From a virus (taxonomy: Duplodnaviria > Caudoviricetes), in the IMG/VR virus record IMGVR_UViG_3300037515_000929, positions 1 to 42,454 of that record: DNA of 42,454 nt; one strand, given 5' to 3'. Below are positions 1 through 42,454 of the stretch, piece by piece. Position numbers and translations under genes: made by a program. Position 1 is the stretch's first letter. The number at the start of each line of letters is the position of its first letter. The notes under the pieces are model-generated. The model searched no databases, had not been told where the DNA came from, and saw only the letters and a program-made list of their open reading frames with translations.

Positions 1-139
1 AAGGATGACCTCTTCACGCCTGGGAAGACGTACCAGGTCGACTTCACCGAGGTCTCTTGACGCCGCAGGCGCTGCTGATCGCGCTGCTGCTGGGCGCGCA
101 AGCCGCCGTCGGGGCGGCCACTACAGTTACACCCGAGAG
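1..139. repeat. Terminal direct repeat, left copy (circular assembly overlap)
   Basis: 1-139 equals 42316-42454 except T127 vs A42442; the ORF at 42148-42375 continues through 1-60. Confidence 0.95.
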
Positions 140-827
140 AGGGGGCTCGGAGGTAGTGCCCGCCGCGGAGGCACCCGCGACGACCTCCGGGCCCCCGCTC
201 GTAGAGCTCCACGGCGGCTTCTACCAGGTGTTCACCGCCCGGGGCTCGGAGGAGTACTCCTCGAGCCGCGCCTGGCACGCGCAGCTCACGCTGAGGACGC
301 CGGCCTGGCGCCGCTGGAGGATCTTCGGCGCGCTCGAGACCGCCCCCCAGGCCGGCGCCGCCCAGGAGGACCTGCAGGCGCTGGGCCCCTGGCTCGGCGG
401 CGAGGCTAACCTCGGCATCTCCTGGGAAGGCCTCCGTGCCGGCCCCTGGAGCCTCTCCCCGGCGATCGCCGGCGGCCTGACCGCGGCCCTGGGCGCCGAC
501 CGAGAGCGGATCGAGGTGGAGCCCCTGCAGGCGCTCGCCGGCGTGCGCCTCGGCGCGGGTGAGCCGGGCGACGACTGGCGCCTCAGGGCCTACGTGGGCT
601 ACGGGATCCGCGAGCAGATCGAGGAGCTCCCCCCCGAGGGCTGCGCCGACTGCGACCCGGCAACAGAGGCCGACCGTCGCTGGGCGTGGGTGGCCGACGT
701 CCTGGTGAGCGTGCCGGGGCTGCCCGCCGGCGCCGCCCTGCGAGTCAAGCTCGTCTCGACCCAGGCCCGGGTAGAGGCTCCAGGTGGGACGCAGTGGCTC
801 GTAGGGTTCGTGGCGGGGGTGCCCTGA
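57..827 (+). CDS. Exported protein, predicted outer-membrane beta-barrel
   Basis: TTG start overlaps upstream TGA; signal peptide ALLIALLLGAQAA; about ten amphipathic strands (WHAQLTLRTP, WRLRAYVGYG, WAWVADVLVSV, TQWLVGFVAG). Confidence 0.6.
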   Translation: MTPQALLIALLLGAQAAVGAATTVTPERGGSEVVPAAEAPATTSGPPLVELHGGFYQVFTARGSEEYSSSRAWHAQLTLRTPAWRRWRIFGALETAPQAGAAQEDLQALGPWLGGEANLGISWEGLRAGPWSLSPAIAGGLTAALGADRERIEVEPLQALAGVRLGAGEPGDDWRLRAYVGYGIREQIEELPPEGCADCDPATEADRRWAWVADVLVSVPGLPAGAALRVKLVSTQARVEAPGGTQWLVGFVAGVP

Positions 828-1195
828 TGGAAGCCCTACTGATCCTCGCAGCCTGCGGGCTCGCCCTGATCATCGTCGACTGGATCGCGGCGAGCCGGCG
901 AGCATCCGAGGACCCCTACTGGATCCGTGTCCGCGCGAGAGCCCGGGAGCTGGGCTCAGACGGGTGCACGATGGGCGGCGCTCTCTTCCGCGACTGCTGC
1001 CTCGAGCACGATATACACGAGCGCACCCACCGCACGCCCGACGGACAACCGATCACCGAAGACGCATCAGATCGGCGTTTCCTCCACTGCATGCAGCGGC
1101 GCTCCTTCGTCGGCTGGTGGACGCCGATCGGGTGGAGCCGGTACGCCGCCGTCCGCATCTGGCGGCGCTGGCGCGCGTGGCGGGCGGGGAGCTGA
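827..1195 (+). CDS. Membrane-anchored phospholipase A2-like protein
   Basis: TGATG coupling at 825-829; N-terminal TM helix; DGCT...CCLEHD...SDRRFLHCM...YAAVR pattern resembling prokaryotic/phage PLA2-fold proteins. Confidence 0.6.
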   Translation: MEALLILAACGLALIIVDWIAASRRASEDPYWIRVRARARELGSDGCTMGGALFRDCCLEHDIHERTHRTPDGQPITEDASDRRFLHCMQRRSFVGWWTPIGWSRYAAVRIWRRWRAWRAGS

Positions 1196-1199
1196 GGGT

Positions 1200-1670
1200 G
1201 TGGACGAGATCGGACAGGGGCTCAAAGCCATTGCAGCGCTCGACCCCCTTGGGATGGCGCTCGTCATCATCCTCGTCCTGGCGATCGGTGCCGTTTGCGC
1301 TCTTGCAATCGCTTGGAAGCGTGGCTACTTCCGCTCGCACACAGACCTCGCGCGGCGCTCCGCGGAACTCGCTCGGGACATCGCGACCGTGCAGCGTGAC
1401 GTGCATCAGCTCCAGTCGGACTGGCGCACCCTCGAGGGGAGGCTGGATGTGCTCGCGATAGATCAGGCGCGGTGGCAGCCGACGCTCGAAGAGGGGCGAC
1501 GTGTAGCGGATGAGATCCAGCGCACGCTACGACGCCTGACGTCCGAGGTGGCCCGGCTCGGCGGAGTCTCTGCGGCGCTGTTGACAATGGTCCAGCCGTC
1601 GACGCCGCCCGGCGGGAATCAGCCGTTGGGGGTACTGGAGGAGACCCCGGACCCGGAGCGCAGGAAGTGA
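1200..1670 (+). CDS. Single-TM coiled-coil protein (holin- or i-spanin-like)
   Basis: GTG start; hydrophobic LGMALVIILVLAIGAVCALAIAW followed by heptad-like helix; last membrane gene of the lysis cassette. Confidence 0.55.
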   Translation: MDEIGQGLKAIAALDPLGMALVIILVLAIGAVCALAIAWKRGYFRSHTDLARRSAELARDIATVQRDVHQLQSDWRTLEGRLDVLAIDQARWQPTLEEGRRVADEIQRTLRRLTSEVARLGGVSAALLTMVQPSTPPGGNQPLGVLEETPDPERRK

Positions 1671-1843
1671 TCGGGACGCACACCTACGCGGTGCTCGAGG
1701 TGAGCCCCGCGGCGTACGAGGAGATCCGCTCCCTGCTCGAGGCCGCGGGCTACGGCCACGTCCGCGTCACCGACGGCGGTCGGGTACTGCTCGACATGCA
1801 CGGCATCGCCCTGGCCCCGCGCCCGGTGGGCAACGAGGGGTGA
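1667..1843 (+). CDS. Small phage hypothetical protein (58 aa, absent from ORF track)
   Basis: GTGA overlap; MIGTHTYAVLEVSPAAYEEIRSLLEAAGYGHVRVTDGGRVLLDMHGIALAPRPVGNEG; strong GC3 bias. Confidence 0.75.
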   Translation: MIGTHTYAVLEVSPAAYEEIRSLLEAAGYGHVRVTDGGRVLLDMHGIALAPRPVGNEG

Positions 1844-2191
1844 GCCCTGCAGCTCCTGCGACCGTGCGCTCACCCGGGTTGCCCCGAGGTGGTGCCGCGT
1901 GGTCGGTGCCCGGAGCACGCGCGGCAGCGGCGCACCAGGTACGAGGCCGGGAGGCCGAGCGCAGCCAAGCGGCAGTACGGCCGCCGCTGGCAGAAGCTCC
2001 GGGCGGTCGTCCTCCGGGAGCGCCCCCTGTGCGAGGCATGCCAGAGGCTGGGCCGCATCACCGCCTCGCGCGAAGTCGACCACAAGGTGCCTCGGCGTCG
2101 CGGGGGTACGGATGCGCGCGGCAACCTCCAGGCGCTGTGCACTCCGTGCCACTCTCGCAAGACCGCCACCGAGGACGGCCGGTGGGGGTAG
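1840..2191 (+). CDS. Terminase-associated HNH endonuclease (HK97 gp74-like); 5' end out of frame
   Basis: RPCAHPGC...CPEH, CEAC, EVDHKVP, NLQALCTPCHSRKT; directly upstream of terS. The coupled GTG at 1840 is one base out of frame with the body. Confidence 0.85.
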
Positions 2192-2860: not shown

Positions 2861-4586
2861 GCCCTCGGGCGAGACCCTCGAGGCGATCCGCGCCTCGAAG
2901 CGCGCCATGAAGCGGTGGCCCGGTGTCTCGATCGCCCTCGACGACTGCGGCGGCCGCTACTACTTCGACAAGGAGGAGGCGGACCGCGCGAGCGAGTTCT
3001 TCCCTGAGTACTTGATCCACGTGAAACAGGCCGAGTTCTACGGCAAGCCCTTCGAGCTGCTGCCCTATCAGAGCGAGCTCGTCATCCGGCCGCTGTTCGG
3101 GTGGCGCCGCGTCGACGACGGCCGCCGTCGCTTCCGGAAGATCTACGTCGAGGTCCCCAAGAAGAACGGGAAGAGCCCGCTGGGCGCGGGCATCGGCCTC
3201 TACGGGCTCTTCTGTGATCGGGAGCCGGGTGCCGAGATCTACAGCGCTGCGGCCGATCGCGAGCAGGCCGGAGTCGTGTTCGACGTGGCGCGGAAGATGG
3301 TGGAGTCCTCCCCCGACCTCCAGGCGATGAGTCAGGTGTACAAGCGCTCGATCTCCGTCCCGGCGACCAACTCGTTCTACAAGGTGTTGAGCGCCGACGT
3401 CCGGACGAAGCACGGCCCGAACATCCACATCCTGGTCTTCGACGAGCTCCACGCCCAGCGGGACAGGATGCTCCACGACACGCTCGCCCGCGGCATCGCG
3501 GCCAGGCGGCAGCCGATCATCGCCTACTTCACCACCGCCGGCGACGACGAGGAGTCGATCTGCCGGGAGCAGCACGACTACGCAATCGGAGTGATCGTGG
3601 GTCGGATCGAGGATGAGTCCTTCCTGCCCGTGATCTTCGCGGCGAAGCCGGAGGACGACTGGCGTGACCCGCAGGTCTGGGAGCGCTCGAACCCCGGCCT
3701 CGGGGTGACGATCAAGCGAGAGTACCTCGAGGCCGAGGCCCGGGAAGCGATCCAGGAGCCGCGCAAGCAGAACAGCTTCAAGCGCCTGCACCTGAACATC
3801 TGGACCCAGCAGGCTGAGGCGTGGCTCGACCTGGTGGAGTGGGACCGCTGCCAGGGGGAGCTCCTCGAGGACGGTTGGATCGCGGCCGCCGCGGGGATCG
3901 ACCTGAGCTCGAAGATCGACCTGACCAGCCTCGTCGTCCTGCTGATGTACAGGGACCGGGGCCGGAAGGCGGATCAGGTCGTGCTCACCGGGACCGACGT
4001 GGACACCGGGGAGCGGATCGAGCGCCGGATGGCGATCGACTTCTCCGTCGAGGTCTTCCCCTACTTCTGGATGCCCGAGGAGACGCTGCACCAGCGCGTG
4101 CGAGACGACGCGGTCCCCTATGACGTCTGGCACCGGGAGGGACTCCTGCGAATGACCGACGGCCCGGTGGTCGACTACGACCAGATCCTCGAGGAGATCG
4201 TCGACGAGATCGCCCCGCGCTTCCGGCTCCGCGACTGGCCGATCGGCTTTGATCCCCACAACGCCACGCAGTTCATGCTGCAGCTGGGCAAGAAGGGCTT
4301 CACGGTGGTCGAGGTGCCGCAGACAGTGAAGGAGCTGTCGGAGCCGGCGAAGCTCTTCGAGGCCCTGATCCGTAGTCGACGGATCCGCCACGACGGCCAC
4401 CGTGTCCTGCGGTGGAACGTCGAGAACGTGGCGGCGAAGGAAGACAAGAAGGAGAACATCTTCCCGTTCAAGCCCAGCAAGAAGAAGCGGATCGACGGAG
4501 TCTCGGCGTCCGTGACGGCTCTGAACCGGCTGATCCACGCACCGCCGCCTCGGCAGCGACCGACGGTCATGATGGTGACCGCATGA
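2847..4586 (+). CDS. terL: Terminase large subunit
   Basis: Walker A VPKKNGKS, Walker B VFDELH, TTAG, nuclease GIDLSSKIDLT, FDPHNA, KRIDG. Confidence 0.97.
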   Translation: MARSRPSGETLEAIRASKRAMKRWPGVSIALDDCGGRYYFDKEEADRASEFFPEYLIHVKQAEFYGKPFELLPYQSELVIRPLFGWRRVDDGRRRFRKIYVEVPKKNGKSPLGAGIGLYGLFCDREPGAEIYSAAADREQAGVVFDVARKMVESSPDLQAMSQVYKRSISVPATNSFYKVLSADVRTKHGPNIHILVFDELHAQRDRMLHDTLARGIAARRQPIIAYFTTAGDDEESICREQHDYAIGVIVGRIEDESFLPVIFAAKPEDDWRDPQVWERSNPGLGVTIKREYLEAEAREAIQEPRKQNSFKRLHLNIWTQQAEAWLDLVEWDRCQGELLEDGWIAAAAGIDLSSKIDLTSLVVLLMYRDRGRKADQVVLTGTDVDTGERIERRMAIDFSVEVFPYFWMPEETLHQRVRDDAVPYDVWHREGLLRMTDGPVVDYDQILEEIVDEIAPRFRLRDWPIGFDPHNATQFMLQLGKKGFTVVEVPQTVKELSEPAKLFEALIRSRRIRHDGHRVLRWNVENVAAKEDKKENIFPFKPSKKKRIDGVSASVTALNRLIHAPPPRQRPTVMMVTA

Positions 4587-4780
4587 GGAAGCTCCTCGCG
4601 GCGCCGCGCGCGCTCGCAGCCTCGCTCCGAACCGACCGGCCTTACTGGCTGCTCCTCGCCGGCGGCGCCGCGTGTACACGCGGAATCGCCATGATGCACG
4701 AGCCCGCCGCCTGGATCGTCGCCGGCGCCGGGCTCGTGGCCATGGGCCTCCTGATGGCGACGACGAGGCGGGGGCGCTGA
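4583..4780 (+). CDS. Small two-TM membrane protein between terL and portal
   Basis: ATGA overlap; YWLLLAGGAA and PAAWIVAGAGLVAMGLLM; usual position in HK97-like phages. Confidence 0.7.
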   Translation: MRKLLAAPRALAASLRTDRPYWLLLAGGAACTRGIAMMHEPAAWIVAGAGLVAMGLLMATTRRGR

Positions 4781-6543
4781 TGGGCTTCCTGGCTGCCGTG
4801 TTCGACAACGTGCTCGAGCGACGGAACCTCGCGGGCGTGCCGCTCGGGAGCCCCGAGTCCTCGGGCATCTTCGGCGTCCGCGCCACCCGCTCCGGAATCG
4901 AGGTCACCGGGGAAGCGGCGCTCACCTTCGCCGCCTTCTGGGACGCCGTCTCGCAGATCTCCGGCACGTCGGCCTCGCTGCCCCTCCAGCTCTTCCGCCG
5001 CCTGCGTCCGCGCGGCAGTGAGCGGGTACCTGGGGATCCTCGCTACGACATCGTCCACGCCGAGCCCAACCCCGAGACCACGGCGGTTTCGGCCCGCCAG
5101 ACGATCATGAAAGACGCCCTGGTGTACGGGAACGGCTTCGCCGAGCTGACCCGGAACAACCGCACCGGAAAGGTCAAGGCGCTCTGGCAGCTCCCGGCAG
5201 CCGAGGTCCGTGTCGAGCGAGACACCAGGACGGAGCGGCTCATGTACCGGCTCCCGGGGACCAACGTCCGAGCGCCTGCGCGGGAGATGGTCCACGTCGC
5301 GGGGATGAGCTACGACGGCGTCGTCGGCTACTCCGTGGTCGGCGCCGCCCGGGAGTCGATCGGGCGAGGTCTCGCATCGGACGCCTTCGCCGCCAGCTTC
5401 TACGGCAACGGCGCCTGGCCTGGGATCACCATCGTGCACCCCGGCGACCTCGGCCCCGAAGGGCGGAAGGATCTCACCCTGGCGATCCAGGAAGCGCACG
5501 GCGGCTCGGAGAAGGCCTTCCGCGCCCTGGTGCTCGACCAGGCCATGACGGTGAGCGCCCTCGGGATGCCCCTGAAGGACGCCGAGTTCCTCGCCGGGCA
5601 GCGCTTCAGCGTCGAAGAGATGGCGCGCTGGTTCAACCTCAAGCCCCACCGGCTGAAGGTCCAGGACTCGGCTCGCGTGAGCAACCACGAGGCCGACAAC
5701 ATCGAGTTCTACTCGGAGTGCTTGCGGCTCTGGCTCGTGCGATTCGAGCAGGAGCTGAATCGCAAGCTCCTCACTCGCGAAGAGCGCCAGCTACTCTACT
5801 TCGAGCACAACGCCGCCGGCCTCCTCCGTGGGGACGCCAAGACCAGGCACGAGACTTACAGCCGAGGCCGCCAGTGGGGCTACATGAGCGCCAACGACGT
5901 CCTGGAGCTGGAGGGACGGAACCCGCTCCCCGGCGGCCAGGGGGACCTGTACCTGGTCCCCGAGAACATGACCTCGGCGGAGTCGATGTACCACCGCCTG
6001 ACGCAGGAGCGGGAGCGGGTGGCGGCCGGGGAGCCGCTCGACCCGCCCCCGCCGCCGAACCCTGCCGGGGTCTCCGGTGACCCCGACAGCCGGCCTGGGC
6101 CCGCCGTCGATCCGGTCCGGGCCCGGCGCATCCGCGCAGCTCACCGCCGCGTCGCACTCGAGGCTGCGGAGCGGGCTGTGCGCCATACGACGAACGCGGT
6201 GCGCCGCGCCGCCGGCCGCGGCGTCGCCGGGTTCCGCGCGTGGATCGCCGACGGAGGCCTCCAGCGGGAGCAGGACCTGGTCGCGAGGATGCTCTTGCCC
6301 GCGATCACCGCCTGCCTCAGTCTCGACGTCGACGACGAGCCCGGCCGCGCCGCGGCCCGGGCCCTCGAGGTGGCGGATGCCTACGGCACCCGGATCCGGG
6401 CGGAGCTGGCCGCCCCGGACAACGCCGTGGCAGCCGGCGAGGACCTCGCGGTACGCGTCGAGATCGTCGTGTCGCGCTGGGAGAAGGAATGGCCGAGTCT
6501 GGTGCTCGAGCAGGTACAGGGAGGACCCCATGAAGAAGCCTGA
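4780..6543 (+). CDS. Portal protein, HK97 family, with C-terminal extension
   Basis: LVYGNGFA, YDGVVGYS, FYGNGAWP, DAEFL, EQELNRKL, LLRGD, MSANDV, GGQGD; Pro-rich linker then an extra helical region. Confidence 0.95.
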   Translation: MGFLAAVFDNVLERRNLAGVPLGSPESSGIFGVRATRSGIEVTGEAALTFAAFWDAVSQISGTSASLPLQLFRRLRPRGSERVPGDPRYDIVHAEPNPETTAVSARQTIMKDALVYGNGFAELTRNNRTGKVKALWQLPAAEVRVERDTRTERLMYRLPGTNVRAPAREMVHVAGMSYDGVVGYSVVGAARESIGRGLASDAFAASFYGNGAWPGITIVHPGDLGPEGRKDLTLAIQEAHGGSEKAFRALVLDQAMTVSALGMPLKDAEFLAGQRFSVEEMARWFNLKPHRLKVQDSARVSNHEADNIEFYSECLRLWLVRFEQELNRKLLTREERQLLYFEHNAAGLLRGDAKTRHETYSRGRQWGYMSANDVLELEGRNPLPGGQGDLYLVPENMTSAESMYHRLTQERERVAAGEPLDPPPPPNPAGVSGDPDSRPGPAVDPVRARRIRAAHRRVALEAAERAVRHTTNAVRRAAGRGVAGFRAWIADGGLQREQDLVARMLLPAITACLSLDVDDEPGRAAARALEVADAYGTRIRAELAAPDNAVAAGEDLAVRVEIVVSRWEKEWPSLVLEQVQGGPHEEA

Positions 6544-24607: not shown

Positions 24608-25398
24608 TGCCCTTCGTCGCGACCCTCTTCCCGAACGCGAACAAGGACGACGGCACCGGCGGAGGGAACTGGGGTACCCAGGGCTCGTCGATCGGCGGCG
24701 GCGCCGCCTGGGAGCAGGTGAAGAGCGTCGACGGGGGCTACTGGGCGCGCGACGACGCCGGGAGCGAGTCGAGCTTCGCGACAGCCACTTTCTACCTCGA
24801 CGCCCTACCGGTGTTCGCGCGCCGCATCACGGGCGACCCTGCGGCGCCGCCGGTGAAGGTGCGCGGGTGGTGGCTCGAGACGTCGCCGGCGACGGATGTC
24901 GAGGCCACGCACGGGATCGGCTACAGCGCCGCGACCACCATACAGACGCCTTTTGCCGTGCCGGGCACGCCGGCCTCGGAGTTCTCCGCGTTTTCGGTCG
25001 CGGAGAACCCCGACGGCCCGCGGCCCTGGGTCGTGGAGGACTTCAAGGGGACCAGCTCGGACGCCTACGCGATCATCGAGGCCGAGCGTCCGGCGTCCGA
25101 CTACATCGGCTGCGACCGCGTGACGGTCGAGGTCCGCTTCGAGCGCGACCCCCAGGCGGGTATCTACGACCTGGTCGGGCCCTACCTTCCCCTGCCCCTC
25201 GCCGCGCTCCTCGGCGGCCTGGCCCACGCCCGCGTCGACCTGCGCGCCCTCGCCGGCGCCGTCTACCGGCTCTCGGGGCGTCGGCTCTGGTGGGACGTCG
25301 CCGAGGACCTGGAGCTCGAGCGGGAGCTGCGGTCGCTCCGGTGGCCCAGGGTGGTCGACCTCGGGTCGCGGCCGCGGCCGCGGCCGCTCCGCGCCTAG
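24607..25398 (+). CDS. Tail-associated hypothetical protein
   Basis: TGATG coupling; beta-rich N-terminal part; last late gene. Confidence 0.65.
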   Translation: MPFVATLFPNANKDDGTGGGNWGTQGSSIGGGAAWEQVKSVDGGYWARDDAGSESSFATATFYLDALPVFARRITGDPAAPPVKVRGWWLETSPATDVEATHGIGYSAATTIQTPFAVPGTPASEFSAFSVAENPDGPRPWVVEDFKGTSSDAYAIIEAERPASDYIGCDRVTVEVRFERDPQAGIYDLVGPYLPLPLAALLGGLAHARVDLRALAGAVYRLSGRRLWWDVAEDLELERELRSLRWPRVVDLGSRPRPRPLRA

Positions 25399-25838
25399 CG
25401 CGACAGCCTGAGCGCGTTGTTCGTCGCGTCCGCGACGGCGAGGACCGCGACAGCGACGGCGAGGATCCGCCCCCAGCGCCTGGTGCCGGCGTCGTCGCTC
25501 TTGATCATGCTGTCGAGCCCCCAGAGGGCGGCGCCGTAGAGCGCGGGCTTGGCCGCCCAGCGCGCGGCGCGGGAGCGCATCAGGGGGTTGCCCTCGGCGA
25601 GGCCCGGCCTGGCGAGAGCGACCTCCGTCAGGACGCTCGCCGTCGCGCCGCCGGCGATGGTCACGCCCCGGGTCCAGGAGGCGAAGGCCTGCGCCTCGTC
25701 GAGCTGGTCCGCCGTGATGATGCGGGCGATCGCCACGTCGGCGCGATCGGGCGGAGCAGGTGGCCCGGCCAGCTCGAGCGGAGCGGCCGGAGGGGAGAGA
25801 ACGGCCAGGACGACGGCCACGGCAGCGAGCTCGACCAC
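25395..25838 (-). CDS. Membrane protein with EGNPL motif (DUF5658-like)
   Basis: GTG start with GGAGG RBS; hydrophobic N-terminus; GLAEGNPLM; further TM helices. Confidence 0.7.
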   Translation of the reverse strand: MVELAAVAVVLAVLSPPAAPLELAGPPAPPDRADVAIARIITADQLDEAQAFASWTRGVTIAGGATASVLTEVALARPGLAEGNPLMRSRAARWAAKPALYGAALWGLDSMIKSDDAGTRRWGRILAVAVAVLAVADATNNALRLSR

Positions 25839-26163: not shown

Positions 26164-27312
26164 TCACTTCAGCTTCGCCCGCTTCCGGGCGGCCTCCCGG
26201 AGCGTCGCCTCGTCGACGATCGCGTAGCGCCGGTAGATCGCCTCGGTCGCGTGCCCGACCATCGCCATCGCCGCGGCGCGCGGCACCCCCGACCGCTCGA
26301 GGTTCCGGACCGCGGTGCGTCGGAAGTCGTGGAGGAGCTTCCCGGGCACCCCCGCCGCCCTGCAGGCGGCCCGCCAGGCGCCGTACATGCTCCGGATCTG
26401 CCGCCCGGAGCGGTGGAACACCCAGGGGCAGATCCGGGCCTCGCGCTGCTCGAGCACGTCCGTCCGCCGGCGCTGCTCGAGCAGGACCTGGCGCAGCTCG
26501 GGGAAGTCGCGGAACGGGAAGAGCCGGCCGCGGTGGTGGACGTCCTTCGTCTCGCCCGGATCGAGCCGGAGCCAGCCCTCCCGCAGGTCGACGTGCTTCC
26601 ACTGGCGGCTCAGCACCTCGCTCCGCCGCCAGCCGGTGAGGTAGTAGGTCAGGATCACGGGCCGGAGGTCCTCGTCCAGGTGGGGGAGGACGGCGTCGAG
26701 CTGGGGGCGCTCGAAGAAGCCCGCCCGCCCCGGCGGCTCCTGCAGCAGCTCCACGGGGGGGACGTAGCCGACCAGCCGCATCTTGTACCCGAGCCGGAAG
26801 GCGCGGCGGAGCGCCGCGAGCTCGCGGTTGACCGTGGCGTTCGCGGCGCCCTCGGCCAGGCGCGCCGTGACGTACCCCTGGATCCGCTCCGGGCCGATGG
26901 TGGCCGCTGGCTGCGTGCCGAAGGCCACCGTCAGGCGCTTCAGGCACCGGGTGACGTCGGCGATCGACCGGCGCCGGTTGGCGGCGTAGTCGCGCTCGAC
27001 GAGCTGCGCCAGGTCGGCCCAGGTCGTGCGCCGGAGCTCGGGGGAGACGAAGGCGCCGCGGTCGGCCGCCACCAGGCGCTTCCGCAGCAGCTCCTCGGCC
27101 TTCCGCACCTGGTGGCGCGGCAGGCCCGTGTTCTCCCGCACCACCCGCCCGCCGACGTAGTACTGGATCCGGATCGTCGGCCGGTCCTCGTCGAGGACGG
27201 TGCCGGTGCCGCGGCGGCCGCCCTTCTTCTCCGCCGGGAGGTCGCGGCCGCAGTGCCGGCACACGACCGCCGCCGCCTGGATCTCCTCGGCGCAGAACGG
27301 GCAGCGCTTCAT
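26164..27312 (-). CDS. int: Tyrosine integrase with N-terminal zinc ribbon
   Basis: TGWRRSE (R), GETK (K), HDFRR, VGH, IYRRY; ATVNRELAALRRAF; N-terminal CPFC...CRHC; RBS GAGGT. Confidence 0.95.
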   Translation of the reverse strand: MKRCPFCAEEIQAAAVVCRHCGRDLPAEKKGGRRGTGTVLDEDRPTIRIQYYVGGRVVRENTGLPRHQVRKAEELLRKRLVAADRGAFVSPELRRTTWADLAQLVERDYAANRRRSIADVTRCLKRLTVAFGTQPAATIGPERIQGYVTARLAEGAANATVNRELAALRRAFRLGYKMRLVGYVPPVELLQEPPGRAGFFERPQLDAVLPHLDEDLRPVILTYYLTGWRRSEVLSRQWKHVDLREGWLRLDPGETKDVHHRGRLFPFRDFPELRQVLLEQRRRTDVLEQREARICPWVFHRSGRQIRSMYGAWRAACRAAGVPGKLLHDFRRTAVRNLERSGVPRAAAMAMVGHATEAIYRRYAIVDEATLREAARKRAKLK

Positions 27313-27741: not shown

Positions 27742-28251
27742 ATGGCTGCGCCGAAGCGTGTCACCGACAACGAGGTAGTCCAGGCCATCAGGTGTTGGCG
27801 CGGCAACGTCGCCGCGGCGGCGGATGTCCTCGGGATGCAGCCTCGAAACCTCCGGAAACGCTTGGACTCGCTACAGGTCGACCTCGAGCGGATCCGCGAG
27901 GAGAGCCTAAAGGACCCGGTCCTATCGAAGGGACCCGGTCCTATCGGCCCCAAGGCGGCCACCGAGGCTCGATCTGTAGTCGAGTCCTTTCCACGGCGCA
28001 TCGCAGTCACTAGCTTGGCTCACGTGAACGACGCGGCTACCGCCGAGCTCCCGATCAAGGCGATTCGTCCGAGGCGGACGCCGCTGCGGCTGCTCCCAGA
28101 GCACCAGGACCAGCTCCGGGACGCCAAGCTGGACTTCGGCGCCCGCTTCCGGCTGGAGACTGACGAGAACGCGATCCTCAACCAGTTCTTCGAGGAGGAG
28201 TTCGAGGCATGGCGGACGAAGAAGCTCGACAGGACCGAGGGTGGCGAGTGA
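27742..28251 (+). CDS. Fis-type HTH regulator, possible C-terminal RHH
   Basis: AIRCWRGNVAAAADVLGMQPRNLRKRL; first gene of the early operon. Confidence 0.8.
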   Translation: MAAPKRVTDNEVVQAIRCWRGNVAAAADVLGMQPRNLRKRLDSLQVDLERIREESLKDPVLSKGPGPIGPKAATEARSVVESFPRRIAVTSLAHVNDAATAELPIKAIRPRRTPLRLLPEHQDQLRDAKLDFGARFRLETDENAILNQFFEEEFEAWRTKKLDRTEGGE

Positions 28252-28284
28252 CGAGCCTCCAGGCGCTGCGGGCCGAGGCCCTCG
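28247..28284 (+). repeat. 38-bp direct repeat, copy 1
   Basis: AGTGACGAGCCTCCAGGCGCTGCGGGCCGAGGCCCTCG, identical at 29121-29158. Confidence 0.95.
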
Positions 28285-28300
28285 CGGAGGGTCAGGCCCC

Positions 28301-29125
28301 ATGAAGCCCGCCCTCCGCGTCACGAAGGATTACGACATCTTCGACCTGCACGTGCACAACCGCGAGATCCGGACGAAGGCCCATCTGTTCAGGTCGATGA
28401 AGCAGCACGGGTTCATGCCGTCGTCGCCAGTCCAATGCGTACAGGAAGGGTCCGGAAGGCTCCAGGTCATCCGAGGACACCACCGCATCTTGTTCGCGCG
28501 GCAGCTCGGGTTGCCCGTCTGGTACGTCGTCGACGACTCAAACACGGACATCTACGACCTGGAGGCCGACAGCAGCAACAGCTGGAAGCTTCGCGACTTC
28601 GTGGTGAGCTATGCGAGTGCCGGTCTACCCGCATACGCGAAGATCCTGGATTTCCAGCGGGAGCACGGCATCACCCAGCAGATCGCGATCAATCTGCTTG
28701 GCGGGCAAGGGGCTCGCAGTAACAACAGATTGGAGCAGGTGAAGAGGGGAACTTTCGCGATTGCTGAAGATCTCTCCCACGCGCACGCGGTTGTCGATGT
28801 CGTGGGCCACCTCCGATCCGGCGGCGTCGCCTTCGCCTCACAGTCCAACTTCGTCGCTGCGCTATCAAGTGCTCTTCGCGTCCCCGAGTTCGACGCGAAG
28901 TTGCTCAAGCACCGCTTCACGCAGGCCCCGGGACTCCTCCAGCCGAGGACGTCCATGGAGGGGTACCTGGACGAGGTGGAGGCTCTCTACAACCACGGAG
29001 CCAAGGGGAGGCGCGTGCCGCTTAAGTTCCGGGCCCGCGAGGTCGCGCGAGAGCGCCAGGCTACCTTCGGCGGGAGGATCACTCGAGCCCGCAGCAAGAA
29101 GGGCGAGGACGAGGCCGGCCAGTGA
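28301..29125 (+). CDS. ParB N-terminal-domain protein (lower-GC insert)
   Basis: TKDYDIF...NR, SMKQHG, VIRGHHR, QLGLPV, WKLRDF; visibly more A/T-ending codons. Confidence 0.8.
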   Translation: MKPALRVTKDYDIFDLHVHNREIRTKAHLFRSMKQHGFMPSSPVQCVQEGSGRLQVIRGHHRILFARQLGLPVWYVVDDSNTDIYDLEADSSNSWKLRDFVVSYASAGLPAYAKILDFQREHGITQQIAINLLGGQGARSNNRLEQVKRGTFAIAEDLSHAHAVVDVVGHLRSGGVAFASQSNFVAALSSALRVPEFDAKLLKHRFTQAPGLLQPRTSMEGYLDEVEALYNHGAKGRRVPLKFRAREVARERQATFGGRITRARSKKGEDEAGQ

Positions 29126-33251: not shown

Positions 33252-34757
33252 GTGGAGACGACGACGGCCGCACCCTCGATCGAGATGATCGAGCTCCGGA
33301 GCCTCTCGGAGCACCCGCAGAACCCGCGGAAGACGTTCGACGCCGAACGCCTGGCCGAGCTCGTCGAGAGCGTGCGGCAGCAGGGGATCCTCAACCCCCT
33401 GCTGGTCCGACCGCTGGACCCGGCCGCCCCCGACGGCGGGTACCAGATCCTGGCCGGCGCCCGGCGCTTCCGCGCGGCCGCGAAGGCCGGCCTCCCCCAG
33501 GTCCCGGCGATCGTCCGGGACCTCGACGACACCGCCGCCTTCGAGGTGGTGGTCATCGACAACCTGCAGCGCGCGGACCTCCACCCGCTCGAGGAGGCCT
33601 ACGGCTACCACCAGCTGATGCGGCCGAGCGTGGGCTACAGCGTGGGTCGCGTGGCGGACCGGGTCGGCCGGTCCATCTCCTACGTCTACGACCGGCTGAA
33701 GCTGTTGAGCCTGACGAAGGAGGCTCAGCAGCTCTTCCGCGAGGGGGCGATCACCACCGCTCACGCGGTCATCCTCGCGCGCCTGACGCCGGCGGACCAG
33801 AAGCGTGCGATCGGCAAGCCCGGTGAAGGCCCGCTCCTCGAGCGCGAGCGAACTCTCTTCGACCCGACGGACAAGTCTTCGCGCGACTCCGTCAAGCCCA
33901 TCAGCGTCCGTGAGCTCCAGGCCTGGGTCGACAAGCACGTCCGCTTCGACGCCACGGCCGCCGATCCGATGCTGTTCCCGGACACTGTCGAGGCCGTCCA
34001 GGAGGCGAAGGAGGAGGAGCTCAAGATCGTCCCGATCACGCACGACCACAACGTGATCCCCTCGGCGAAGGACGGCTCGAGGACCTACGGGCCGCAGTCG
34101 TGGCGCCGCGCCGGCGGAGCCGGCTCGAAGAAGTGCGACCGCGCCGTGCAGGGCGTGATCGTCGTCGGGCCCGGACGCGGGCAGGCGTTCCCCGTCTGCA
34201 TCGACAAGAAGAAGTGCGCCGTGCACTGGGGCAAGGAGCAGCGCGCGGCGAAGAAGCGGGCCGGCCAGGCGGCGAAGGGAGGCACGACCGGCGAGGACCG
34301 CTGGCGGATCGAGCAGCGCAAGCGCGAGGAAGAGCGCAAGCGCGAAGAGGCGGAGAGCGCCCGCTGGAGAAGGGCCGTGCCGACCATCCTCGAGGCGATC
34401 GCGACCTCGGTCAAGAAGGCTCCGGTGCGCGCCAGGGGCCAGCTCGCCGACCTGATCCTGAGGGACGTGCGGTACACGAGCTACGGCGCCCTCCCGCTCG
34501 AGACGGTGGCGGATCTGGTCCCGCTCGGCCAGACCGCCGAGGACCTGGTGCGCCACGTCGGCTTCGTCATCCTCGCTAATTCGGCGCAGGAGTACGTCGC
34601 GCACCGGTCCTTCCCGAGGGTGGCGAAGGCCTTCGGCGTCGACGCGCGGAAGATCCTCGACGAGGTCGCGCCGGAGCCGAAGGAGCCGGCCGCCGCCGCG
34701 GCGCCGGCGAAGAAGACCAGGAAGGCGGCGAAGAAGGCGCGCGGCCGCCGTGGGTGA
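33252..34757 (+). CDS. parB: ParB/Spo0J-family protein, long form
   Basis: NPRKTFD, LVESVRQQGILNPLLVRP, AGARRFRAA, NLQRADLHPLEEA, HTH; C-terminal Cys cluster. Confidence 0.92.
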   Translation: METTTAAPSIEMIELRSLSEHPQNPRKTFDAERLAELVESVRQQGILNPLLVRPLDPAAPDGGYQILAGARRFRAAAKAGLPQVPAIVRDLDDTAAFEVVVIDNLQRADLHPLEEAYGYHQLMRPSVGYSVGRVADRVGRSISYVYDRLKLLSLTKEAQQLFREGAITTAHAVILARLTPADQKRAIGKPGEGPLLERERTLFDPTDKSSRDSVKPISVRELQAWVDKHVRFDATAADPMLFPDTVEAVQEAKEEELKIVPITHDHNVIPSAKDGSRTYGPQSWRRAGGAGSKKCDRAVQGVIVVGPGRGQAFPVCIDKKKCAVHWGKEQRAAKKRAGQAAKGGTTGEDRWRIEQRKREEERKREEAESARWRRAVPTILEAIATSVKKAPVRARGQLADLILRDVRYTSYGALPLETVADLVPLGQTAEDLVRHVGFVILANSAQEYVAHRSFPRVAKAFGVDARKILDEVAPEPKEPAAAAAPAKKTRKAAKKARGRRG

Positions 34758-40288: not shown

Positions 40289-40317
40289 TTGACCGCGCGG
40301 CTGTCAGCCCGTACCCT
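40289..40317 (+). promoter_or_regulatory. Sigma70-type promoter for lysis/late operon
   Basis: TTGACC N17 TACCCT. Confidence 0.6.
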
Positions 40318-40437
40318 CTGAGCTGAGCCGCGTGGCTCCGGCGAGGTAGCCCGCGACGCAAGCGGGCCCGCCGGGAGGGATTGCCCGGTGCCGAGGGCCC
40401 TCCGACATGCCTCCTCACGAGGCGAGTCGGAGGATCC

Positions 40438-41052
40438 TTGCCGGCAGACGCAGACCAGGCCCCCGAGCCGCCCCCCCTCTCGACATTCGATCGGGCCTTC
40501 AGCCGCATCGTCCTCGCTGAGGGCGGCGCCGCCTTCAGTGACCACCCCCACGACCCCGGCGGGCCCACGAAATGGGGCGTCTCCTGGCGCGCGGTCCGCC
40601 TGCGCGACGCGGACCGCGACGGCCGCTTCGATTTCGACCTCGACTTCGACGGCGACGTCGACGCCGACGACATCCGGCTGATCGAGCGCCACCACGCCGA
40701 GCAGCTCTTCGCCGAGGACTACTGGGGCCCCGCCGGCTGCGAGCGGTGGCCGGCGCCGGTGGCGATCGCCGTCGCCGACGCCGCCTACAACCAGGGGCCG
40801 CGGACCGCCGTCGCCCTCCTCCAGCGCGCGATCGGGGCCGCGTCGGGGCGGCCTGACGGGATCCCGGGGCCGCGCACCCGCGCCGCCGTCGAGGCGCTCG
40901 GGGCCGCGGGACGGGTCCCCGAGCTCCTCACCCGCTTCGCAGCCCTACGAGCGGACCGCTACCGGCTGCACCCGCGCGTCGACACCTTCTTCCGCGGCTG
41001 GATCGCGCGGCTCATCGAGCTCGACAGGGCTCTGGCTGGAGGTCCCCAGTGA
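40438..41052 (+). CDS. Endolysin, GH108 with C-terminal peptidoglycan-binding domain
   Basis: EGG...DHPHDPGGPTKWGVS, YNQG, DGIPGPRT, FFRGWIARL; TTG at 40438 follows GGAGG (TTG 40381 is an alternative start). Confidence 0.92.
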   Translation: MPADADQAPEPPPLSTFDRAFSRIVLAEGGAAFSDHPHDPGGPTKWGVSWRAVRLRDADRDGRFDFDLDFDGDVDADDIRLIERHHAEQLFAEDYWGPAGCERWPAPVAIAVADAAYNQGPRTAVALLQRAIGAASGRPDGIPGPRTRAAVEALGAAGRVPELLTRFAALRADRYRLHPRVDTFFRGWIARLIELDRALAGGPQ

Positions 41053-42128
41053 AGCGACGCTGGACGGGTCTGTGCGTGGTGCTCGTGGCGATGGTACCCG
41101 GGCTGGTCATGGCCCACGGCTGCGCGAGCTTCCCGGAGATCAAGCCGGAGCGCGAGCCCTGGCCGATCCGAGACGACGGGACCCCGTACGCGCGCTGCCA
41201 GCTCGGCGCCAACGTGCCGGAGGACATGCCGCGGGTGTCGTGCGACTGCGCGACCGAGGGCCCGGTGGTCGACTTCGTCGGGACCTGGGAGATCCGCGAG
41301 TGTCCCGCGCCGCCACCTCCACCGCCTCCACCGCCGGAGCCCGACCCCGAGCCCGATCCTGACCCGACGCCTCCTCCGCCCCCTCCGCCGGCAGGCACGT
41401 GTCCGCCCATCACGGCCTTCCGTTGCTTCGACGGCGACTCAACGGCGCTCGCCGGCGTCGAGGTCTCGGCTGCCGAGCGCCGCGTCATCGCCTCGAGGCC
41501 GGGCTACCTGGTCGAGGTGCACGAGCGAGGGCAGCACCTCCGGGCCAAGATCCGGACCCCGGACCCCGGCGCCGAGCCCGACCTGCGCCGCTGGACGGAG
41601 GACGTAGCCGCCGAGCTGCGTCGCGCCGGCTACTGCGCCTACAGCGGCGATCCAGGCGGCAGCTCGCCCGACGAGATCCTGATCGTCGTGGACGACCCGG
41701 AGGGCCTCGCCGAGCAATGGGACCTCGCGAAGTGCGGCGCGGTCGACCCCGACAAGCGCTATTGCGTTGGGAGCGATCTCGAGCACCAGCCGTTCGACTG
41801 CGTGCTCCGGGACTCGGGTCCCGACCTGGGATCCGGTGGCCCGGGCGACCCCGGGCCCGAAGACGAGCCGGAGGGCTACTGCACCGTCAGGGGGCACGGC
41901 AACGCGGACGGGCCGCTGCGGTTCCCGACCATGCTCGCCGCGTGCCAGTTCTCGCTCGATTGGGCGAGCGACGCCGGGCACACGACGCGCCACACGAGCG
42001 GCGGCGAGACTTGGTTCTACGACGAGGGCCGGGGCTGGTACCGCCGCGCGACGTGCGAGAGCTACGACTCGCCGGGTGGGCGGCTGCTCAATGGACCGGA
42101 CTGGTTTGGCGTCGAGTGCTTCCCGTGA
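41049..42128 (+). CDS. Cys-rich, Pro-rich putative lipoprotein
   Basis: MKRR plus hydrophobic stretch and AHG-C lipobox-like site; polyproline/PEPD linker; many Cys. Confidence 0.7.
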   Translation: MKRRWTGLCVVLVAMVPGLVMAHGCASFPEIKPEREPWPIRDDGTPYARCQLGANVPEDMPRVSCDCATEGPVVDFVGTWEIRECPAPPPPPPPPPEPDPEPDPDPTPPPPPPPAGTCPPITAFRCFDGDSTALAGVEVSAAERRVIASRPGYLVEVHERGQHLRAKIRTPDPGAEPDLRRWTEDVAAELRRAGYCAYSGDPGGSSPDEILIVVDDPEGLAEQWDLAKCGAVDPDKRYCVGSDLEHQPFDCVLRDSGPDLGSGGPGDPGPEDEPEGYCTVRGHGNADGPLRFPTMLAACQFSLDWASDAGHTTRHTSGGETWFYDEGRGWYRRATCESYDSPGGRLLNGPDWFGVECFP

Positions 42129-42147: not shown

Positions 42148-42375
42148 ATGGTGCGAGCGCGTTTCGTCTGTCAGTCGGTCCGGAAGTTCTGCCACTGGTC
42201 GAAGCCCGGCGTGTTCCTCCACGAGGCCGAGCTCACGCCCGTCGTGGGTGACGACGAGGAAAACGCCAAGTTCTTCGAGGCGACCCCGAGCGGAACGATC
42301 AAGCTCGCGACCCTGAAGGATGACCTCTTCACGCCTGGGAAGACGTACCAGGTCGACTTCACCGAGGTCTCTTGA
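42148..42375 (+). CDS. Small phage protein, VRARF...TPSG...YQVDF type
   Basis: RBS AAGGAGG; ENAKFFEATPSGTIKL, FTPGKTYQVDFT. Confidence 0.8.
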   Translation: MVRARFVCQSVRKFCHWSKPGVFLHEAELTPVVGDDEENAKFFEATPSGTIKLATLKDDLFTPGKTYQVDFTEVS

Positions 42376-42454
42376 CGCCGCAGGCGCTGCTGATCGCGCT
42401 GCTGCTGGGCGCGCAAGCCGCCGTCGGGGCGGCCACTACAGATACACCCGAGAG
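42316..42454. repeat. Terminal direct repeat, right copy
   Basis: Matches 1-139 with one mismatch. Confidence 0.95.

Follow-up and report, generated by a model that had tools for sequence, protein, structure and literature searches.

A gene run of a temperate, long-tailed phage (40381–1670, read across the circular junction), best explained as its late lysis operon, combines a GH108 endolysin with a likely holin-like protein and a putative phospholipase A2 (PLA2), and relatives of this PLA2 occur repeatedly beside endolysins of seven families in other phages. From this recurrence of a 100–120-aa phospholipase we infer that the enzyme likely contributes to the dissolution of host membranes during lysis; on sequence evidence, the chance that it serves as an accessory lysis phospholipase appears to us about even. 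In a survey of phages of Gram-negative hosts, approximately 13% lacked an identifiable spanin (PMC6139136). The PLA2 offers a concrete candidate for how such phages get through the outer membrane, and one suited to a lambda Rz/Rz1 complementation assay. Our literature search found no tested case of such a phage lysis PLA2, and the available portion of PMC10057898 contains nothing on phospholipases in lysis.

The window, by which we mean the whole 42,454-nt stretch analysed, is a circular genome: its 139-nt terminal repeat has one mismatch, at position 127 (A in sequence run X1), and closes the circle, so the gene run over the junction is real. The initial annotation had described this run as a late promoter followed by a GH108 gene, a lipoprotein gene, a small gene and three coupled envelope genes. 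Gene order and coupling were confirmed by the repeat and by the start overlaps, with the barrel gene starting in a TTGA overlap, the PLA2 gene in a TGATG overlap and the third gene after a 4-nt gap; fold models, profiles and hydropathy likewise supported the descriptions of the three products as a barrel, a PLA2-like protein and a transmembrane (TM) coiled-coil protein. The promoter was borne out in part: a sigma-70-like match lies 5′ of the endolysin gene (Table 1), but it falls below the threshold of the scanner, which reported none. The tyrosine integrase indicates that the phage is temperate. The cassette region is modular, the barrel alleles being 43–95% identical, the TM gene replaced or deleted and a cassette inserted in the related genomes L001 and L002; in both, a leftward cassette stands in place of the 75-aa gene, which has no counterpart in either. 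Passenger genes, moreover, are prone to gather where the late operon ends.

Table 1 Features of the junction-spanning operon and its surroundings in the window.
Feature	Position	Strand	Evidence and remarks
Terminal repeat	1..139 (= 42316-42454)	.	Closes the circle and joins both operon halves; 1 mismatch over 139 nt
Signal peptide, linker and predicted 10-stranded outer-membrane beta-barrel	57..827	+	AF2, VIA, Foldseek, Atlas neighbours
Group XIV-type PLA2 homologue (putative), lineage-specific N-terminal TM anchor	827..1195	+	Profile hits, AF2 model, residue conservation
Holin-like candidate of 156 aa with one TM and a C-terminal coiled coil; topology predicted as N-out/C-in	1200..1670	+	Hydropathy, charge pattern
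58-aa ORF and HNH endonuclease; downstream cassette edge, leading to terminase genes	1667..2191	+	HNH PF01844 E 6.2e-13; terS and terL PHROGs
Tyrosine integrase	26164..27312	-	PF00589 E 1.3e-13, over cut-off
Weak sigma-70-like promoter candidate, 5′ of endolysin	40289..40317	+	8/12 consensus positions, 17-nt spacer, read from sequence; identical in L001
GH108 and PG_binding_3 endolysin, start codon uncertain	40381..41052	+	PF05838 E 2.2e-18; PF09374 E 5.2e-7; phrog_315 endolysin E 3.6e-34
359-aa Pro/Cys-rich predicted outer-membrane lipoprotein	41049..42128	+	Hydropathy; atypical lipobox AHG-C; no C-terminal TM
75-aa soluble protein	42148..42375	+	Weak phrog_6978 match, E 3.5e-4

The middle gene of the coupled trio encodes a group XIV-type PLA2 homologue, a putative enzyme. 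A profile of 128 family sequences (A1), searched against the sequences of solved structures (PDB), returned four matches at E ≤ 1, all of them prokaryotic or fungal PLA2s (7ygk, 1.5e-7; 8k1w, 1.4e-6; 1faz, 3.5e-6; 4aup, 2e-4). In VIA, the AF2 model (pLDDT 90.7) ranked the Tuber PLA2 4aup first among 48,161 chains (Z 7.2, rmsd 3.5, 83 aligned), at a Z value within the range of common arrangements, and Foldseek, run with the same model, found no PLA2 at a significant level (best E 0.75). A helical core is common to this protein and the secreted group XIV enzymes of Streptomyces violaceoruber (1faz/1lwb) and Tuber borchii (4aup; PF09056), and D43, C45, C61, H64, D65 and D85 of 1faz align to its D45, C47, C58, H61, D62 and D82, with the catalytic His/Asp intact. 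H61, D62, C47 and C58 are invariant in all 128 family members, D82 is present in 104/128, and D45, H61, D62 and D82 occur jointly in 99/128. Position 65 is Glu here, whereas it is Tyr in group XIV and in 96/128 members. The first cysteine pair (C47/C58) aligns with that of group XIV, and the second (C57/C88) is placed differently; its disulfide is suggested by co-occurrence, both cysteines being found in 79/128 members, neither in 47 and one without the other in two. The family further differs from group XIV in being phage-encoded and mostly without a signal peptide: a hydrophobic, export-like N-terminus is found in only 6 of 125 members, which argues against cleaved secretion or a pro-sequence, and the hydrophobic N-terminal segment of the present protein, followed by six K/R, resembles an uncleaved anchor. 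Retention of the paired cysteines, together with the rarity of an export-like N-terminus, suggests that activation of the family may be gated by the holin.

The protein itself has no Pfam match at E ≤ 0.1, PF09056 and PF07087 (DUF1353) included; at E ≤ 0.01, 14 and 10 of the 128 family members match these two entries, respectively. Relatives also match the unannotated phrog_6098, to which a lysis role of the PLA2, if true, would give a function. The family comprises 186 clusters at 50% identity. No relative was detected by tblastn among 50,697 records of cultured phages, and matches in genome bins (Pseudomonas, Thermoanaerobaculia, Bacteroidales) were short phage-like contigs. One locus, L087, showed a weak RHS-like match and was left out of the counts.

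Gene neighbourhoods supported the idea of an enzymatic breach of the membranes. From 58 pattern loci, 11 were dropped (ten unrelated proteins and one at a contig end). Of 31 viral lineages, 10 place an endolysin ≤1.1 kb from the PLA2, where about 2–3 would be expected. Of the 12 endolysins within the fetched flanks, 10 fall within this distance (2.7 expected, P 1.6e-5), and the expectation in a 40-kb genome is 2.1/31 (P 2e-5); these P values are optimistic, because the 1.1-kb cut-off was picked after viewing the data and L043 and L046 are sisters. The seven Pfam endolysin families, counted with non-representative members, are scattered over the PLA2 tree, and within one PLA2 clade the adjoining endolysin alternates between GH19 and M15. 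In 25/29 cases, the PLA2 gene starts ≤20 nt from the preceding gene on the same strand. Endolysins lie 10–15 kb away in two of the 31 lineages and were not located in 17, with 23 of the 31 records less than 90% complete; several PLA2 copies lie among terminase or head genes, and the distance in the present genome is 2.1 kb. Searching five further records with six endolysin families yielded only two GH108. Neighbourhood conservation, proposed as a check by the initial annotation, held for the PLA2–endolysin link and failed for the trio: the PLA2 is the recurring part of the cassette, but the three genes are not a conserved module that travels as one.

These neighbourhoods also bear on an alternative that we consider unlikely, namely that a hot spot in the late operon has taken up the PLA2 and the barrel as passengers or conversion genes, with roles in lysogen envelope remodelling, in superinfection exclusion or in harming adjacent cells following release. 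Such roles would suit a temperate phage with a modular cassette region, and in Staphylococcus phage phi575 a conversion gene, pla2, lies downstream of the lytic module; however, that PLA2 has a signal peptide (PMC5390265), which the present family mostly lacks. The translational coupling of the genes, a scan of 1–2500 in which no promoter was detected, and the recurrence of the PLA2–endolysin link over seven endolysin families all count against this alternative.

As an accessory lysis enzyme, the PLA2 would join the GH108 endolysin and the likely single-TM holin-like protein. It would stay latent in the reducing, low-calcium cytoplasm, tethered in this phage to the inner membrane by its locally acquired anchor, until holin lesions and wall degradation brought it into contact with the periplasm, which is oxidising and contains calcium. 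There its products, lysophospholipids and fatty acids, may weaken not only the inner membrane but also the outer membrane's inner leaflet. The PLA2 would assist spanins rather than strictly replace them. That it is instead the outer-membrane disruptor taking the place of spanins in these phages seems improbable. The outer leaflet of the outer membrane is lipopolysaccharide, which is not a PLA2 substrate and counts against replacement. In favour of replacement, a scan of all plus frames between −2.5 and +1.5 kb relative to the PLA2 found no lipoprotein-like ORF in any of the ten lineages with a close endolysin, although spanins could sit outside this stretch; the present genome has no spanin-type lipoprotein, and PMC6139136 counts 91 of 677 diderm phage genomes in which no spanin could be identified. 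In contrast, an o-spanin-like lipoprotein gene lies beside the PLA2 in L031, L066 and L086, nested inside an i-spanin-like gene in the first and last of these, and an i-spanin-like gene lies beside it in L075; PHROG Rz-like matches among the spanin-like genes of these four loci have E values of 0.007–0.009, and a GH19 endolysin also adjoins the PLA2 in all but L066. Since one clade combines the PLA2 with a canonical embedded spanin pair, the PLA2 is not a strict spanin substitute. A broader proposal casts small PLA2s of group XIV type that lack a signal peptide as a fourth lysis component, widespread among diderm phages, which disrupts the outer membrane enzymatically once the holin has given it access to an oxidising and calcium-rich periplasm, and which suffices for release where spanins are missing, as in this phage; the proposal is tentative and rather doubtful.

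TtaP, encoded beside the muramidase TtsA in the Salmonella typhoid-toxin islet, is a signal-less, active PLA2 that, according to its authors, may perturb the outer membrane; its deletion is reported to have left both the integrity of the envelope and the secretion of the toxin unchanged (PMC11525133). TtaP (DUF1353) resembles the phage family in being small, signal-less, group XIV-related and encoded with a wall-cutting enzyme (PMC11525133), and differs in having no Cys pairs and in lying in a toxin islet; a lysis role of the phage PLA2, if true, would suggest an origin for it. The putative lytic cassette of phage WO likewise places a phospholipase, a putative patatin PLA2, beside a single-TM, C-terminal coiled-coil holin-like gene (PMC9203015); the patatin has a different fold and stands in place of an endolysin, whereas the PLA2 here accompanies GH108. 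The phiKT gp28 disruptin is described as a cationic peptide, unlike the PLA2, and mycobacteriophage LysB, described as a mycolyl esterase, is likewise an enzymatic solution to an outer layer. With canonical holin–endolysin–spanin cassettes, the present one shares a late operon, an endolysin and membrane proteins, but it has no Rz/Rz1 or u-spanin.

The claim that no nested Rz/Rz1 pair is present was upheld in every plus frame of the cassette. The companion claim, that there is no classic multi-TM holin, also stood for the cassette, except that the TM coiled-coil protein could plausibly be a holin-like protein of the single-TM kind. Its TM segment (residues 17–35) is preceded by one K/R and three D/E and followed by five K/R and one D/E; this charge bias predicts a cytoplasmic C-terminus, not the N-in/C-out topology and periplasmic coiled coil of an i-spanin. 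No lipoprotein-like ORF lies within or after the gene, and the only one ends ~1.4 kb upstream. The N-terminal TM, the C-terminal coiled coil and the location in a lysis cassette agree with single-TM holin-like proteins of the phage WO and LysF1b types as described in PMC9203015 and PMC13056207, although at 156 aa the protein slightly exceeds the 150-aa limit of the phage WO type. It is likely a single-TM holin-like protein rather than an i-spanin; a natural variant without its start and TM weakens the holin assignment.

The initial annotation had named, among the outcomes that would refute it, an ordinary spanin pair formed by the lipoprotein and the TM protein, with the other genes dispensable; as a rival reading, the two would be a separated o-/i-spanin pair. 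The findings make this very unlikely. Spanin genes usually run i- then o-spanin; here the lipoprotein comes first, and it has 16 Cys in 359 aa. The Pro-rich lipoprotein does lie directly behind the endolysin, and the TM protein has six weak Rz-like PHROG hits that cover its TM segment and its coiled coil (E 6e-4 to 0.045, best 6.3e-4), but its predicted cytoplasmic coiled coil is opposite in orientation to that of a type II i-spanin, and the ~1.4 kb between the two genes compares with a maximum of ~1 kb in PMC6139136. The pair is not co-conserved: L002 retains the lipoprotein with an unrelated TM/coiled-coil protein in the same slot.

The predicted lipoprotein fits neither an o-spanin nor a u-spanin; its single hydrophobic peak is N-terminal, with no C-terminal TM. 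It is the sole lipoprotein-like ORF of the genome in a scan of both strands with a relaxed lipobox pattern, a strict pattern having missed known cases. Identity is 96% in L001 and 58% over residues 1–269 in L002, and Pfam, Atlas and a search for shorter homologues gave no match. A likeness of its middle part to 200–230-aa neighbours of other PLA2s was not convincing (18–20% to L026, no phmmer match). Relatives of the endolysin are distant (31–32% identical in the best rows) and come from Gram-negative genera.

The first coupled gene probably encodes a lineage-specific passenger. Its low-confidence AF2 model (pLDDT 60.7) has ten long strands, forming an even-stranded closed barrel behind an N-terminal hydrophobic peak predicted to be a signal peptide, and seven of the ten strands alternate by at least 2 hydropathy units. 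VIA placed OpcA first (Z 15.2, rmsd 3.6, 188 aligned) and TM barrels in the top four rows, with soluble nitrobindin next at Z 12.1; Foldseek rows were nearly all outer-membrane proteins (best E 1.7e-3), and Atlas neighbours include Tsx, Phage_OMP and BcsS clusters, PF24653 having a 16% share of one cluster. Outer-membrane barrels follow a C-terminal aromatic beta-signal rule; the C-terminus is Gly-Val-Pro in this genome and L002, and Trp in L001. As part of a conserved module the barrel was rejected, its profile matching one of 31 PLA2-bearing records (this lineage) and one of the eight near-complete ones. In viral scans L001 and L002 alone were matched, a metagenome scan gave three close relatives, and a search of 251 genomes from the class to which G032 belongs, run without a positive control, found none.

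The idea that membranes are breached through the barrel is not supported by this distribution, and we regard it as highly improbable that the barrel itself breaches the outer membrane or anchors a spanin-like bridge there. Ten-stranded barrels have narrow lumens, and no periplasmic partner was identified. For such a role speak its coupling into the lysis operon, a similar cassette in L025 with an unrelated secreted beta-rich protein, and the speculation in PMC6139136 that an outer-membrane protein may act as an o-spanin. It is also under purifying selection (57 synonymous versus 48 non-synonymous codon changes against L002), and its frame remains open across insertions of 1.4–1.6 kb in L001 and L002. 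The barrel contributes little unless tied to lysis by experiment. Lambda Lom and Lc/NmpC are phage-encoded outer-membrane proteins that we take to be comparable. With these and PF24653 Phage_OMP it shares the setting of a beta-barrel gene near late or lysis genes in a temperate phage; it has no Pfam or PHROG match and is set apart by its ten predicted strands and an OpcA/OmpT-like closest fold.

The virus record is 98% complete and carries an integrase gene, which marks a temperate phage, together with terminase, portal, protease, capsid and tape-measure genes, which mark a long-tailed one. The record has a 139-nt terminal repeat, so the lysis operon continues across the junction; within it, the barrel, phospholipase A2 (PLA2) and holin-like genes are coupled, each overlapping its neighbour or separated from it by 4 nt. 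The late promoter in the initial annotation matches the consensus at 8/12 positions; it is weak, and the promoter scanner did not report it. The barrel, lipoprotein and endolysin relatives make a diderm host likely. Scanning both strands from every start codon under relaxed criteria found a single lipoprotein-like ORF in the genome, lacking a C-terminal TM segment; the lysis operon is real and has no spanin-type lipoprotein.

Coordinates of features in the window and in compared viral loci (operon genes first, in order)
Sequence	Feature	Position	Size or strand
Window	GH108 endolysin	40381-41052	
Window	Lipoprotein-like ORF	41049-42128	359 aa
Window	Small ORF		75 aa
Window	Putative barrel	57-827	
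Window	PLA2	827-1195	
Window	Holin-like gene	1200-1670	
Window	HNH		
Window	Terminase		
Window	Short TM-coding segment before PLA2	827-890	
Window	Deletion in variants	1194-1544	351 nt
Window	Candidate packaging-site region	2190-2335	
Window	Terminator-like hairpin	2318-2332	
Window	Small membrane protein	4583-4780	+, 65 aa
Window	Small membrane protein	25395-25580	-, 61 aa
Window	Integrase	26164-27312	
Window	ParB-like gene	28241-29125	
Window	ParB-like gene	33252-34757	
L001	Leftward cassette in barrel frame	4097-6001	
L002	Leftward cassette in barrel frame	3705-5906	
L007	Short TM-coding segment before barrel signal peptide	551-700	
L025	Unrelated coupled cassette	3100-5608	
L026	PLA2-adjoining protein	5102-5797	
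L041	PLA2-adjoining protein	4312-4941	
L062	PLA2-adjoining protein	5111-5707	
L060	PLA2-adjoining protein	5647-6270	

Pfam and PHROG gave no match for the PLA2 protein, and phmmer against 1.84 billion representatives returned 186 relatives at E ≤ 0.001. We aligned 128 sequences (the query, three of the four matches of a first search and 124 of the best 150 of the 186 relatives), omitting long, short and split ones. The resulting profile matched four sequences of solved structure, each a prokaryotic or fungal PLA2 (E 1.5e-7 to 2e-4), and individual members matched PF09056 (14/128) or DUF1353 (10/128) at E ≤ 0.01. With an AlphaFold model (pLDDT 90.7), VIA ranked Tuber PLA2 first among 48,161 chains (Z 7.2, rmsd 3.5, 83 aligned), as did Foldseek, non-significantly (E 0.75). 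Residues D43, C45, C61, H64, D65 and D85 of the Streptomyces enzyme (1faz) align with D45, C47, C58, H61, D62 and D82 of the window protein, which has Glu at residue 65, a position held by Tyr in 96/128 members. C57 and C88 occur together in 79 members, are both missing from 47 and are discordant in two (kinship uncorrected), a co-occurrence that suggests a second disulfide. A hydrophobic N-terminus is present in just 6/125 family members and 1/50 viral loci. On sequence comparison, this anchor is a local addition, because the orthologue in the related locus L002 lacks it and L007 has the same short start. Similar short TM-coding segments precede PLA2 in the window and the barrel signal peptide in L007.

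A motif scan of IMG/VR yielded 58 loci: 47 family members, 10 unrelated and one at a contig end. The 47, with three further loci, formed 31 clusters at 65% identity, and all 257 proteins of 85-450 aa called by an in-house script around one representative per cluster were scanned. Ten endolysins were found in these flanks at E ≤ 1e-4. Eight lie upstream of PLA2 on the same strand within 1.1 kb (GH108, SLT, two M15_3, two M15_4, Hydrolase_2 and phage lysozyme), and two at ~3.7 and 4.4 kb. Whole-record searches revealed GH108 directly downstream of PLA2 in L081 and M15_3 ~1 kb away in L046, the latter scoring below the cut-off. An endolysin within 1.1 kb was found in 10/31 clusters, against a chance expectation of 2.7 of the 12 endolysins found in flanks (P 1.6e-5) or, alternatively, 2.1/31 for a 40-kb genome (P 2e-5), with the cut-off set after the data were seen and L043 and L046 being sisters. 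The distance is 2.1 kb in the window and ~15 kb in L068; L033 has a weak match ~10 kb away. No endolysin was located in 17/31; of the 31 records, 23 are <90% complete, and beyond the flanks the search covered M15_3 in every record and six families in five of them. Terminase or head genes adjoin several PLA2 copies. Among non-representative members, GH19 lies directly upstream in L031, L039, L086 and, below the cut-off, L075, and M15_3 does so in L064. PLA2 is the recurring and unusual element of this spanin-less lysis operon.

Uncharacterised, Pro-containing proteins of 200-230 aa directly adjoin PLA2 in four endolysin cassettes. Those of L026 and L041 share 38% identity, Pfam and PHROG gave no match, and a further lysis component is possible. 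L025 has an unrelated, fully coupled cassette of a secreted beta-rich 162-aa protein, a 118-aa protein resembling M15 peptidases by eye (Pfam without match), PLA2 and a small lipoprotein.

In the ten lineages with a close endolysin, no lipoprotein-like ORF occurred from -2.5 to +1.5 kb in any + frame. In L031 and L086, the GH19-PLA2 pair is immediately preceded by a TM/coiled-coil gene in which a Pro-rich lipoprotein is embedded; the same lipoprotein occurs in L066 and the TM/coiled-coil gene in L075. Rz-like PHROG matches of these genes were weak. Since these four loci carry spanin-like genes, PLA2 is not merely a spanin substitute. PMC6139136 lists 91 of 677 genomes without spanins, gives about 1 kb as the largest spanin gene separation and speculates that an OMP could act as o-spanin. 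According to 10.1101/2024.01.23.576932, the nested LambdaSo spanins were overlooked at first, a risk that our all-frame scan addressed by pattern alone.

The holin-like protein has one TM segment followed by a coiled coil, with weak Rz-like PHROG matches. Flanking charges (1 K/R and 3 D/E before the TM, 5 K/R and 1 D/E after) predict a C-in topology, opposite to that of an i-spanin. The same architecture is described in PMC9203015 for the phage WO holin-like protein and in PMC13056207 for N-out/C-in LysF1b. L002 retains the lipoprotein, barrel and PLA2, but its endolysin is of the SLT family and its TM/coiled-coil protein is unrelated, with the same charge bias; small genes of like kind flank many other PLA2-endolysin pairs. 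In L006 and one run X2 contig (record 14), possibly from one sample, the holin-like gene has lost its start and TM through a deletion between short repeats, and this variant may be defective. Two small membrane proteins outside the cassette are candidate alternative holins or superinfection-exclusion proteins.

The low-confidence barrel model (three sequences, pLDDT 60.7) comprises a signal peptide, a linker and ten long strands, seven with strong alternation. VIA ranked OpcA first (Z 15.2, rmsd 3.6, 188 aligned), then OmpT, a designed 10-stranded TM barrel and a Legionella porin; soluble nitrobindin scored Z 12.1. Foldseek rows were almost all OMPs, none at E ≤ 0.001, and Atlas neighbours included Tsx, Phage_OMP and BcsS clusters. 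The gene is under purifying selection. Its range is narrow (1/31 PLA2 records, elsewhere this lineage only), and the three-gene module proposed initially proved lineage-specific. In the relatives L001 and L002, a leftward cassette, made up of 3-4 small genes, a sigma-70-like promoter of their own and a palindromic operator, lies inside the barrel frame, which starts coupled to the lipoprotein stop and has a signal-like stretch ahead of the cassette. Across it the frame has 0 stops over 461 (L001) and 528 (L002) codons, against 8-13 in other + frames, and the cassette is joined in register at its junctions (2 of 26 in the window). The arrangement resembles an antisense insertion that preserves the frame, which would amount to dual coding; it may instead be a chance open frame in GC-rich DNA.

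The direct observations are the operon structure, homologies, endolysin enrichment and lack of a spanin-type lipoprotein. From these, we propose that the holin-like protein would set lysis timing and the GH108 endolysin would remove the cell wall. Secreted PLA2s need calcium, and the periplasm is oxidising; PLA2 might stay latent without disulfides and calcium, become active once the inner membrane fails, and produce lysophospholipids that would weaken both membranes. We consider the chances evenly balanced that PLA2, with its putative activity, is an accessory lysis enzyme, and think it unlikely to be the outer-membrane disruptor. In the open-access literature searched, we found no phage group XIV PLA2 whose part in lysis had been tested. 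PMC11525133 describes TtaP as a signal-less, Cys-less, active PLA2 that shares an islet with the muramidase TtsA and has prophage DUF1353 relatives; ttaP deletion gave no envelope phenotype, and its authors favoured outer-membrane perturbation as a guess. In PMC5390265, a pla2 gene that encodes a signal peptide lies downstream of a lytic module.

Elsewhere in the window, the terminal-repeat copies disagree at position 127, where run X1 and protein P0005 back A; the first copy likely carries a minor variant or an error. The stretch that separates HNH from terS has a direct repeat containing G-runs, as well as a hairpin, and is a candidate packaging-site region; contigs from runs X2 and X3 skip 51 nt of it. 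The genome combines its integrase with two ParB-like genes.
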